The notes under the pieces: model-generated
Told to the model about the DNA's origin: nothing
The model's database searches: none
Seen by the model: only the letters and a program-made list of their open reading frames with translations
Part shown: one piece after another, positions 41,567 to 42,159 of the stretch
Position numbering within the stretch: the first letter of the stretch is position 1
Layout: each line of letters opens with the position of its first letter
Program-made: the position numbers and the translations under genes
Source: Corallococcus interemptor
Lineage (GTDB): Bacteria; Myxococcota; Myxococcia; Myxococcales; Myxococcaceae
DNA: 64,000 nucleotides
NCBI RefSeq assembly: GCF_003668875.1
Contig: NZ_RAWM01000039.1
Location: forward strand, 2,394-66,393
Reading direction: 5' to 3'

Positions 41567-41866
41567 GTGCCTCTTCCCTTCCGCCCTGGAGCGGCCCCGC
41601 GCTGCGCCGGACTGGCGCGGACGCTCGCTCCATTCCGGTGCGCGGTGTTCCGGACTGGATCGCATTTCGAACAACCAGCGCGCCGAATCCTCGCGGAGAT
41701 CGGGCACAACGTGACGTGGTGGAAGCAGGTCACGCTGGTGGGCGGCGGTGACAACTTCAGCAAGGCCAGGCTCTTCGGAGTCCACACGGACATGTACACG
41801 CTGGGCAACCTGGGTGACCCTCTGACCGGTGGCGACCGCGTGACCTTCCGCTGGATCCACGACTGA
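41567..41866 (+). CDS. Small hypothetical ORF; probably a roughly 52-aa peptide from an internal GTG near 41711 (TWWKQVTLVGGGDNFSKARLFGVHTDMYTLGNLGDPLTGGDRVTFRWIHD)
   Basis: The first half of the 99-aa ORF is Arg/Ala/Pro-rich and junk-like. The second half has protein-like composition and a GGAGA RBS before the internal GTG. Very tentative. Confidence 0.25.
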   Translation: MPLPFRPGAAPRCAGLARTLAPFRCAVFRTGSHFEQPARRILAEIGHNVTWWKQVTLVGGGDNFSKARLFGVHTDMYTLGNLGDPLTGGDRVTFRWIHD

Positions 41867-41937
41867 GCAGCTGCTCGAATGACCTCCGTGCTCGGGTCCG
41901 GATGCGTGGGCCCGCGGACATCCCCCTCGGAGGACAC

Positions 41938-42159
41938 ATGAAGCCGTCGCGACTGAAGCAGGCGATTCCCGGACTCGCGTTGATCATTGGCATTGCCGCG
42001 GGCTCGGCCCTGGCCATGGTGCCTGGTGCGAAGGCGGAGACGGACGACACCCAGGCGGTCCGGATGATCTGTTCGGCCAGCTGCAAGCCGTGCACGACCC
42101 AGTACGACTGTGGCGACAGGGAAGGCTCCTGCGGGGTCTGGCGCTGCACCAGCCCGTAG
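41938..42159 (+). CDS. Small secreted cysteine-rich peptide (73 aa precursor; about 40-aa mature part with 7 Cys)
   Basis: A GGAGGA RBS lies 5 nt upstream of the ATG. Signal peptide (MKPSRLKQAIPGLALIIGIAAGSALAMVPGAKA). Mature part ETDDTQAVRMICSASCKPCTTQYDCGDREGSCGVWRCTSP. Confidence 0.5.
   Translation: MKPSRLKQAIPGLALIIGIAAGSALAMVPGAKAETDDTQAVRMICSASCKPCTTQYDCGDREGSCGVWRCTSP

Follow-up and report, generated by a model that had tools for sequence, protein, structure and literature searches.

Knottins hold six cysteines within about 30 residues and display hypervariable loops on a fixed scaffold, the usual consensus of the inhibitor cystine knot (ICK) being CX3-7CX3-8CX0-7CX1-4CX4-13C; their cysteines are joined I-IV, II-V and III-VI, and the third of these bonds threads the ring. 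Fulvocin C, a bacteriocin of Myxococcus fulvus (UniProt P01547), is likewise small, ribosomal, exported and dense in cysteines (eight in 45 aa), and makes up the C-terminal end of a ~200-aa precursor (196-202 aa) with a long pro-region. Bacterial defensin-like peptides of the cysteine-stabilised alpha-beta (CS-alpha-beta) type, represented by AdDLP of Anaeromyxobacter and by AITD-like peptides of Cystobacter/Melittangium and Actinomyces, are made of a signal peptide, a (pro)peptide and a domain of ~30-40 residues; in CS-alpha-beta defensins the cysteine-stabilised helix motif couples a CxxxC to a CxC further downstream, and a third disulfide is added to it (PMC5116183). SitB belongs to another kind of system: it is a protein with a type I signal sequence and a predicted outer-membrane beta-barrel, is encoded upstream of sitA in a gene that overlaps the latter by 11 bp, and promotes transfer of the SitA lipoprotein toxin by outer-membrane exchange (PMC5562445). 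Here we analyse pep73, a 73-codon gene on the forward strand at positions 41938-42159 of a 64,000-nt stretch of Corallococcus interemptor DNA (NCBI RefSeq assembly GCF_003668875.1, contig NZ_RAWM01000039.1, positions 2,394 to 66,393; G+C ~70%; hereafter the window), and compare it with each of these systems.

Our analyses indicate that pep73 is very likely a real gene for an exported peptide. The open reading frame (ORF) opens with an ATG at 41938, closes with a TAG at 42157-42159 and encodes MKPSRLKQAIPGLALIIGIAAGSALAMVPGAKAETDDTQAVRMICSASCKPCTTQYDCGDREGSCGVWRCTSP. The precursor ORF of 73 aa with a strong GGAGGA ribosome-binding site that an earlier note, made from the sequence alone, had described is thus present, and its G+C by codon position (0.54/0.60/0.865, the last value being the third-position content, GC3) follows the coding pattern expected in this genome. 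The 12 loci whose sequence before the ATG was aligned, other genomic contexts included, keep the Shine-Dalgarno sequence as (G/A)GAGGA, the C. praedator version reading CAGAGGA. The same note had supposed that such peptides are usually missed by annotation. That did not apply here, since the product is identical to RKH68691.1/WP_121770197.1 of C. interemptor and a 51-aa ORF just upstream matches WP_158616261.1 of Corallococcus exactly, both being annotated as 'hypothetical protein'. The pep73 peptide is therefore already in the databases, and it is the family that is undescribed.

A homologue search of 5.8 billion proteins returned 11 full-length relatives of 64-97% identity, and those with a source name are all 'hypothetical proteins' of Corallococcus. 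For the alignment, 16 loci were fetched from genomes and metagenome contigs (Corallococcus, one Myxococcus and three metagenome contigs); where labels are needed below, L001 is Corallococcus sp. EGB, L004 C. praedator, L005 Myxococcus sp. Y35, L010 C. macrosporus, L014 C. exiguus, L015 strain CP114039 and L006 the closest relative of the window. Conservation of the ORF in relatives, on which the earlier note had let its proposal turn, was borne out: the frame is kept in all 16 loci, changes in length are of whole codons and fall in the linker only, and I44, C45, C49, K50, C52, C58, G59, G63, C65 and C70 are invariant, with Met43 mostly conserved (13 of 16) and positions 53, 56, 60, 61 and 71 of the core variable. 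The ratio of nonsynonymous to synonymous differences per site (pN/pS) stayed below 1, at 0.32-0.40 in strain pairs, 0.41 when pooled and 0.28 for the core, compared to 0.03-0.14 in the flanking genes for the major vault protein (MVP) homologue and a 229-aa protein (p229) in the same strain pairs; pN itself was 0.11-0.15 in pep73 and 4-16 times lower (0.008-0.03) in these two flanking genes. On account of this contrast, pep73 is constrained at its scaffold and yet evolves fast in its loops, and its linker changes quickly as well.

The N-terminus of the precursor has the make-up of a Sec-type signal peptide, with basic residues K2, R5 and K7, a hydrophobic stretch at 9-27 (19 residues; Kyte-Doolittle values up to 2.4) and small residues at -3/-1, and the signal region has no lipobox cysteine. 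Two AxA sites occur, ALA|M after residue 26 and AKA|E after residue 33. While the earlier note was correct in assigning a signal peptide, its length of 33 aa is just one option: the ALAMVP of the ALA|MVPG site is kept in 13 of the 16 loci and its A24 and L25 are invariant, and as judged from the alignment, cleavage after residue 26, giving a 47-aa product, would be at least as plausible. The acidic linker that follows is modelled by AlphaFold with a predicted local distance difference test score (pLDDT) below 50, whereas the core is modelled with confidence (pLDDT 76-86), its structure being a small strand/short-helix unit. The core contains six cysteines and seven Ser/Thr in 31 residues, and we could not reproduce two details given previously for the mature region, namely seven cysteines, which number six, and the spacing C-x3-C-x2-C-x6-C-x6-C-x4-C, whose third loop is x5 and not x6. 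The 40-mer has a net charge of -2.2, the values for the mature peptide at pH 7 being -2.2 or -1.5.

We then considered pep73 in relation to its neighbours (Table 1). In vault-linked strains the order is MVP, p249, pep73, the DUF6310-DUF5953 pair, the 229-aa gene and RdgC, in which p249 (a gene for a 249-aa cysteine-rich lipoprotein) and the pair, whose products we presume to be a lipoprotein toxin and its immunity partner, are variable. The pair is intact in the window, L006-L009 and L015, eroded in L001 and L003 and absent from L010 and L014, and L002 keeps the DUF5953 gene alone; pep73 is intact in all of these strains, whatever the state of the pair. Moreover, pep73 occurs in unrelated contexts. 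In C. praedator the gene, ~95 bp upstream of it and its terminator are found together in a different neighbourhood, between an EEP nuclease (endonuclease/exonuclease/phosphatase-family) gene on one side and a DUF2169/PAAR-like type VI secretion system (T6SS) cluster on the other; in Myxococcus sp. Y35 it lies beside DUF1203 and glyoxalase genes; and further unrelated contexts are those of L011-L013. The terminator hairpin starts 17 nt after the stop codon. Nine loci, among them the unrelated C. praedator context, share its 12 bp, one pair showing a compensatory change. Because it is also found where the DUF6310/DUF5953 pair is missing, and in other surroundings altogether, pep73 is a unit in its own right rather than an accessory of the toxin. 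It was not found in plasmid or phage collections by tblastn, and a cysteine-pattern search revealed no paralogue in the window.

As a candidate promoter we propose, from cross-strain conservation only, the segment 41852-41880. In relatives, upstream alignments (A3, A6) show CTTGGA, 17 nt and TCGAAT ~60 nt upstream of the pep73 ATG; in the window and L006 the -35-like CTTGGA block is deleted, and the TGGATC found there is part of the last codons of a relic of p249, described below. No canonical sigma-70 site was found upstream of pep73 in a consensus scan. A sigma-54 reading of the TGGCAC that precedes the Shine-Dalgarno sequence in several relatives, as a -24 box, was discarded, as no TTGC stands at the right spacing, no 5' untranslated region would be left and the element is absent from the window. 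Separately, a short hairpin rich in G+C lies in the presumed 5' leader (window 41890-41925, forward strand), its sequence in relatives being GGGnCCGGA-TGC-TCCGGCCC (alignment A6). Several of its pairs are kept via double changes, and it may be a structural element of the leader or an operator palindrome; an Rfam scan of 41400-42300 gave only a chance-level match (E 0.61).

Table 1. Features of the pep73 region of the window, in order of position
Feature	Position	Strand	Evidence and remarks
Major vault protein (MVP) homologue, 757 aa	39241..41514	-	Pfam Vault, Vault_2, Vault_3, Vault_4, MVP_shoulder; divergently transcribed
Conserved MVP-proximal intergenic region	41515..41685	.	78-87% identical in all MVP-linked loci; the 5' half of the 99-codon ORF falls here, non-coding
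p249 pseudogene relic, contains the micro-ORF	41687..41866	+	Three retained blocks of p249
Candidate pep73 promoter	41852..41880	+	-10-like TCGAAT 41875-41880; TGGATC 41852-41857, 17 nt upstream
Shine-Dalgarno GGAGGA	41929..41934	+	3 nt before pep73 ATG
pep73 coding sequence, 73 codons + TAG	41938..42159	+	Predicted exported six-cysteine mini-protein precursor; ORF, GC3, homologues, alignment
Sec-type signal peptide	41938..42036 (residues 1-33, cut after AKA) or 41938-42015 (residues 1-26, cut after ALA, ALA/MVPG site)	+	Predicted
Acidic length-variable linker/pro-region ETDDTQAVR	42037..42063	+	9-24 residues in the family; whole-codon indels
Cysteine core MICSASCKPCTTQYDCGDREGSCGVWRCTSP	42064..42156	+	Spacing C-x3-C-x2-C-x5-C-x6-C-x4-C in all 16 loci
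Intrinsic terminator of pep73	42177..42206	+	Hairpin 42177-42196 + T-rich tail; terminator scan
Lipoprotein with C-terminal DUF6310, presumed toxin	42207..43121	+	Pfam PF19829, E 2e-54
DUF5953 protein, presumed immunity partner	43118..43864	+	Pfam PF19378, E 2e-113; start overlaps lipoprotein stop by 4 nt (ATGA)

We checked how far the peptide resembles described families. No Pfam or NCBIfam match above cut-off was obtained with pep73, its mature part or three distant homologues; the sub-threshold matches to DUF6520 (E 0.019; 15.8 bits vs a cut-off of 25.4) and, for homologue P0013, to MXAN_0125 (E 0.018) are probably due to the signal peptide. An exhaustive profile (hidden Markov model) search with the mature-peptide alignment found, among 1.84e9 representative proteins, only four clusters, all of 73-86-aa precursors with the same cysteine frame, and no larger protein with the domain. 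No PDB sequence matched the profile, and no fold match was found. By these searches the family is an orphan confined to Corallococcus/Myxococcus relatives, and none of the described families is detectably related to it.

The label 'knottin/defensin/bacteriocin-like' attached to the peptide in the earlier note therefore describes its cysteine density and nothing further. With the bacterial CS-alpha-beta defensin-like peptides pep73 shares the layout of signal peptide, (pro)peptide and short domain, occurrence in myxobacteria, a CxxxC and, presumably, the defensin-like feature of several disulfides. In pep73, however, the CxxxC is formed by the first two cysteines, CxC is lacking and the end is C-x4-C, the gamma-core GXC is missing from the expected register, and the peptide is anionic rather than cationic. 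Membership was rejected, the motif being absent from all 16 loci and no similarity to the alpha-helix on antiparallel beta-sheet of solved defensins being found. Pep73 resembles knottins in packing six cysteines, presumably paired as three disulfides, into about 30 residues and in having hypervariable loops on a fixed scaffold, but its loops of 3/2/5/6/4 depart from the ICK consensus, loop 2 being too short and loop 4 too long. Fulvocin C, whose sequence was confirmed by an exact look-up, shows a local resemblance (C-TT-x3-C-x6-C-G...W..C) but differs in number and spacing of cysteines and in its long pro-region, the pep73 precursor consisting of signal, 9-residue linker and core, and homology between the two was rejected (BLASTP E 0.46; hhalign probability 0.8%).

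Just upstream of pep73, the earlier note had placed a possible second peptide with its own ribosome-binding site. A 99-codon ORF is indeed present at 41567-41866, in which a GTG at 41711 read to the TGA at 41866 would give a 51-52-aa Gly-rich peptide, but the segment turns out to be the 3' relic of a p249 gene and its supposed ribosome-binding site, GGAGA at 41696-41700, corresponds to the ancestral p249 codons L-A-E-I. Intact p249 (237-249 aa), found between the vault gene and pep73 in L001, L014 and L015, has a signal peptide, a probable lipobox and about ten cysteines, and belongs to a family of 15 members in Corallococcus, Pyxidicoccus, Myxococcus and metagenome/Logan sequences, distant members having 184 aa; a PDB sequence search with the family gave nothing significant. 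The relic aligns to three non-contiguous blocks (L001 5541-5571, 5611-5653 and 5774-5889), ~480 bp with the start codon, signal peptide and most of the protein having been deleted, together with two further internal segments (48 and 120 bp) that every intact member keeps. It retains ~60 of the 249 positions and none of the cysteines, and therefore lacks the full length, signal peptide/lipobox, Cys-rich middle and C-terminal FSKAK...GGDRVTFRW by which p249 members are recognised.

That the 52-aa Gly-rich ORF (41711-41866) is nevertheless a functional micropeptide gene is extremely unlikely. Its frame is open, its GTG has GGAG 11 nt upstream, its GC3 is 0.885, and a similar ORF has been called in L006 besides the NCBI entry already mentioned; yet GC3 and 'ribosome-binding site' alike are inherited from the former p249 coding sequence, and the ORF is absent from most relatives. 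Relative to L006, which has the same deletions, it shows eight nonsynonymous and no synonymous changes in 47 codons, one of them at a family-invariant Gly, and its divergence of 5.7% matches the synonymous divergence of MVP (0.061). Changes accumulated at the MVP synonymous rate mark the relic as decaying neutrally. In the 5' half of the 99-codon ORF (41567-41710), G+C by codon position is non-coding-like (0.75/0.63/0.71). Other relics, P0012 of C. exiguus and that in L002, have different boundaries and some strains are without any relic, from which we infer that p249 was lost repeatedly, in at least three independent events (window/L006; L002; the C. exiguus strain with P0012), pep73 being kept each time. 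The proposed pep73 promoter would, if true, explain the frequent retention of the 3' end of the dead gene. The vault-to-pep73 interval (window 41515-41937; L001 4892-6000; also compared in L002, L003 and L007-L010) varies from 236 to 1070 bp among strains as a result of these repeated, differently bounded deletions, and forms a small deletion hotspot. The case, in which NCBI has annotated the micro-ORF as a protein, also illustrates that human readers and gene callers alike may be deceived by a high GC3 left over from a former gene.

The neighbours on either side were as previously described, namely the vault gene and a toxin-like lipoprotein gene, but the membership of pep73 in a toxin locus is positional only, since it has its own terminator and persists without the toxin pair. 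The MVP homologue, a full-length bacterial counterpart of the eukaryotic protein with Vault repeats and a shoulder domain, is 96-99.6% identical in amino acids across Corallococcus strains (pN/pS 0.04-0.07), and a literature search turned up no article that mentions 'major vault protein' together with myxobacteria. Literature searches on DUF6310 and DUF5953 found nothing, nor did a PDB sequence search with the DUF6310 lipoprotein give a significant match. From its sequence features, the pair behaves like a polymorphic toxin/immunity cassette, both roles being presumed. Between window 42207-43864 and L006 6268-7940 the DNA identity is 88% in the DUF6310 gene and 79% in the DUF5953 gene, against >98% in flanking genes, and the GC3 of the pair is 0.75 compared to 0.93-0.94 in core genes. 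As the pep73 terminator leaves no promoter space before the lipoprotein ATG at 42207, the cassette is probably expressed by read-through from the pep73 promoter. The 3' arm of the terminator supplies a GGAGG 8 nt before this ATG. Within window 42177-42215 this arm, CCCGGAGG, holds the only Shine-Dalgarno-like sequence for the lipoprotein, so that folding of the terminator could hide the ribosome-binding site of the window strain, while relatives have ~25 extra nt before the lipoprotein and a separate GAAGAGGTGG site. Just beyond the vault gene, relatives code for a LysM + T6SS_VgrG3-like_C protein and an unannotated secreted protein of ~330-345 aa (L006 406-2028), which suggests further cell-wall-targeting effector genes nearby, predicted by synteny at window ~36200-38065. 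In C. praedator, positions 3600-8426 of L004 carry an Imm49-like gene with the EEP gene on one side of pep73 and a DUF2169/Tox-PAAR-like T6SS effector cluster on the other, a second and unrelated toxin/immunity-rich neighbourhood. The interval from the vault gene to the RdgC side is a small hotspot of repeated gain, exchange and erosion, affecting a lipoprotein gene as well as a toxin/immunity-like pair.

The position of pep73 suggests two ways in which it might depend on a neighbour. As in the sitBA system, a gene for a signal-sequence protein stands directly upstream of one for a lipoprotein with a polymorphic-looking C-terminal domain, coupled to a partner gene, in a myxobacterium, and with no room for a promoter before the lipoprotein ATG the cassette is probably co-transcribed; pep73 could by analogy be an accessory of the lipoprotein toxin system. 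This is very unlikely. The DUF6310 gene is truncated in L001 and L003, has gone from L002, where DUF5953 remains, and is absent from L010, yet pep73 is intact in each of them, and it also sits in the unrelated contexts L004, L005 and L011-L013. Between pep73 and the lipoprotein gene stands a conserved terminator, whereas sitB overlaps sitA, and a 40-residue peptide is too small for a beta-barrel; SitB membership was accordingly rejected on synteny, terminator and size. The link of pep73 to the toxin lipoprotein is positional, perhaps transcriptional, and not mechanistic. A two-gene module of pep73 with p249, as ligand and receptor or inhibitor and enzyme, half-dead in the window strain, has more in its favour: the two lie on the same strand ~90-110 bp apart in L001, L014 and L015, a Logan contig probably carries both (as P0016 and P0004), and both products are exported and cysteine-rich. 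However, pep73 is intact and constrained in at least eight loci without p249, has no p249 neighbour in L004 or L005 and outlived every one of the p249 losses counted above, and p249 homologues in M. fulvus stand alone with no pep73 nearby, which leaves such a module improbable.

Other readings concern the chemistry of the cysteines instead of the neighbourhood. They could serve as thiolate ligands or a redox centre in a periplasmic mini-protein, membrane-anchored if uncleaved, of the metal-binding or CxxC redox kind. A CxxC with Pro is found in thioredoxin-type motifs, and pep73 has an invariant C-K-P-C, in addition to its C-x3-C and C-x4-C pairs and Met43 in 13 of 16 loci, an anionic peptide and an unusually well conserved hydrophobic N-terminus. 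Exported cysteine-dense mini-domains are nevertheless normally oxidised by the Dsb system, pep73 has no His or further Met cluster and matches no metal-binding family, and no metal-homeostasis or redox genes are nearby in any context, so that we regard this role as unlikely. A precursor of a peptide that is made by ribosomes and modified after translation (RiPP), of the lanthipeptide or sactipeptide/SCIFF-like type, with the N-terminus as leader and the Cys/Ser/Thr core enzymatically cross-linked, would suit the abundance of Cys and Ser/Thr in the core and the known production of RiPPs by myxobacteria (PMC8708641). It is highly improbable for pep73, whose N-terminus is a classical Sec signal and not a RiPP leader, and which has no radical-SAM, LanB/C/M/KC or peptidase-ABC exporter gene within 6 kb in the contexts examined; these contexts differ, and hence there is no co-inherited maturase. 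Across contexts, pep73 is not consistently accompanied by a gene for a RiPP maturase or an ABC exporter, nor by an immunity-like gene.

We therefore return to pep73 as an independent gene for an exported disulfide peptide. In the mechanism that we envisage, the Sec machinery would export the precursor, signal peptidase I would cleave it behind Ala26 or Ala33, and the six cysteines would form three disulfides, in a Dsb-dependent manner, in the oxidising periplasm. The product would be a compact core of ~31 residues with a flexible acidic tail, of 4.4-5.0 kDa and slightly anionic, and would work outside the cytoplasm through binding to a target, either external or periplasmic. Most likely it would serve in competition or predation, as an effector that antagonises or inhibits; that it forms pores in the manner of a cationic peptide is less likely. 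The toxin-like lipoprotein cassette would have been inserted just behind the pep73 terminator without the peptide being part of its mechanism. That the peptide is anionic, and that no immunity gene is linked to it, argues against a classical cationic, self-toxic bacteriocin. The fixed cysteine frame with fast loops, the mobility between loci and the toxin/immunity-rich regions in two unrelated contexts weakly favour an effector over a housekeeping role.

Several points weigh against this interpretation. The signal peptide was called by inspection and with the Kyte-Doolittle scale, not with a trained predictor, and allows two cleavage sites; disulfide formation and connectivity are assumed; a slightly anionic peptide is unusual among antimicrobial peptides; and no immunity gene or exporter is linked to pep73 in the contexts examined. 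The family is small and shallow, being mostly of one genus, and its conservation in part reflects recent common ancestry. With the -35-like block lost in the window and L006, expression there may be weaker than in relatives. The evidence for an effector role (fast loops, accessory-like mobility and toxin/immunity-rich neighbourhoods) is indirect. On balance, we have moderate confidence in the explanation as a whole, in which a real, separately transcribed gene encodes an exported disulfide peptide, its toxin link is positional and the upstream micro-ORF is a relic, and we think it doubtful that the peptide has a demonstrable antagonistic activity.

While much is known of small secreted peptides rich in disulfides from eukaryotes, those of Gram-negative bacteria are scarce and have been catalogued poorly. 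As a speculation to which we give limited credence, pep73 may found a new bacterial disulfide-rich mini-protein scaffold: a Sec-dependent and immunity-free antagonist (antimicrobial, antifungal or enzyme-inhibitory) of predatory Corallococcus/Myxococcus, whose loops would diversify on a six-cysteine frame as they do in animal venom peptides or in plant and fungal defensins, to which it would be unrelated. Myxobacteria live by predation and have proved to be a source of anti-infectives. A six-cysteine scaffold of ~31 residues that is an orphan, evolves fast and can be synthesised cheaply would be a reasonable candidate for activity screening and structural work.

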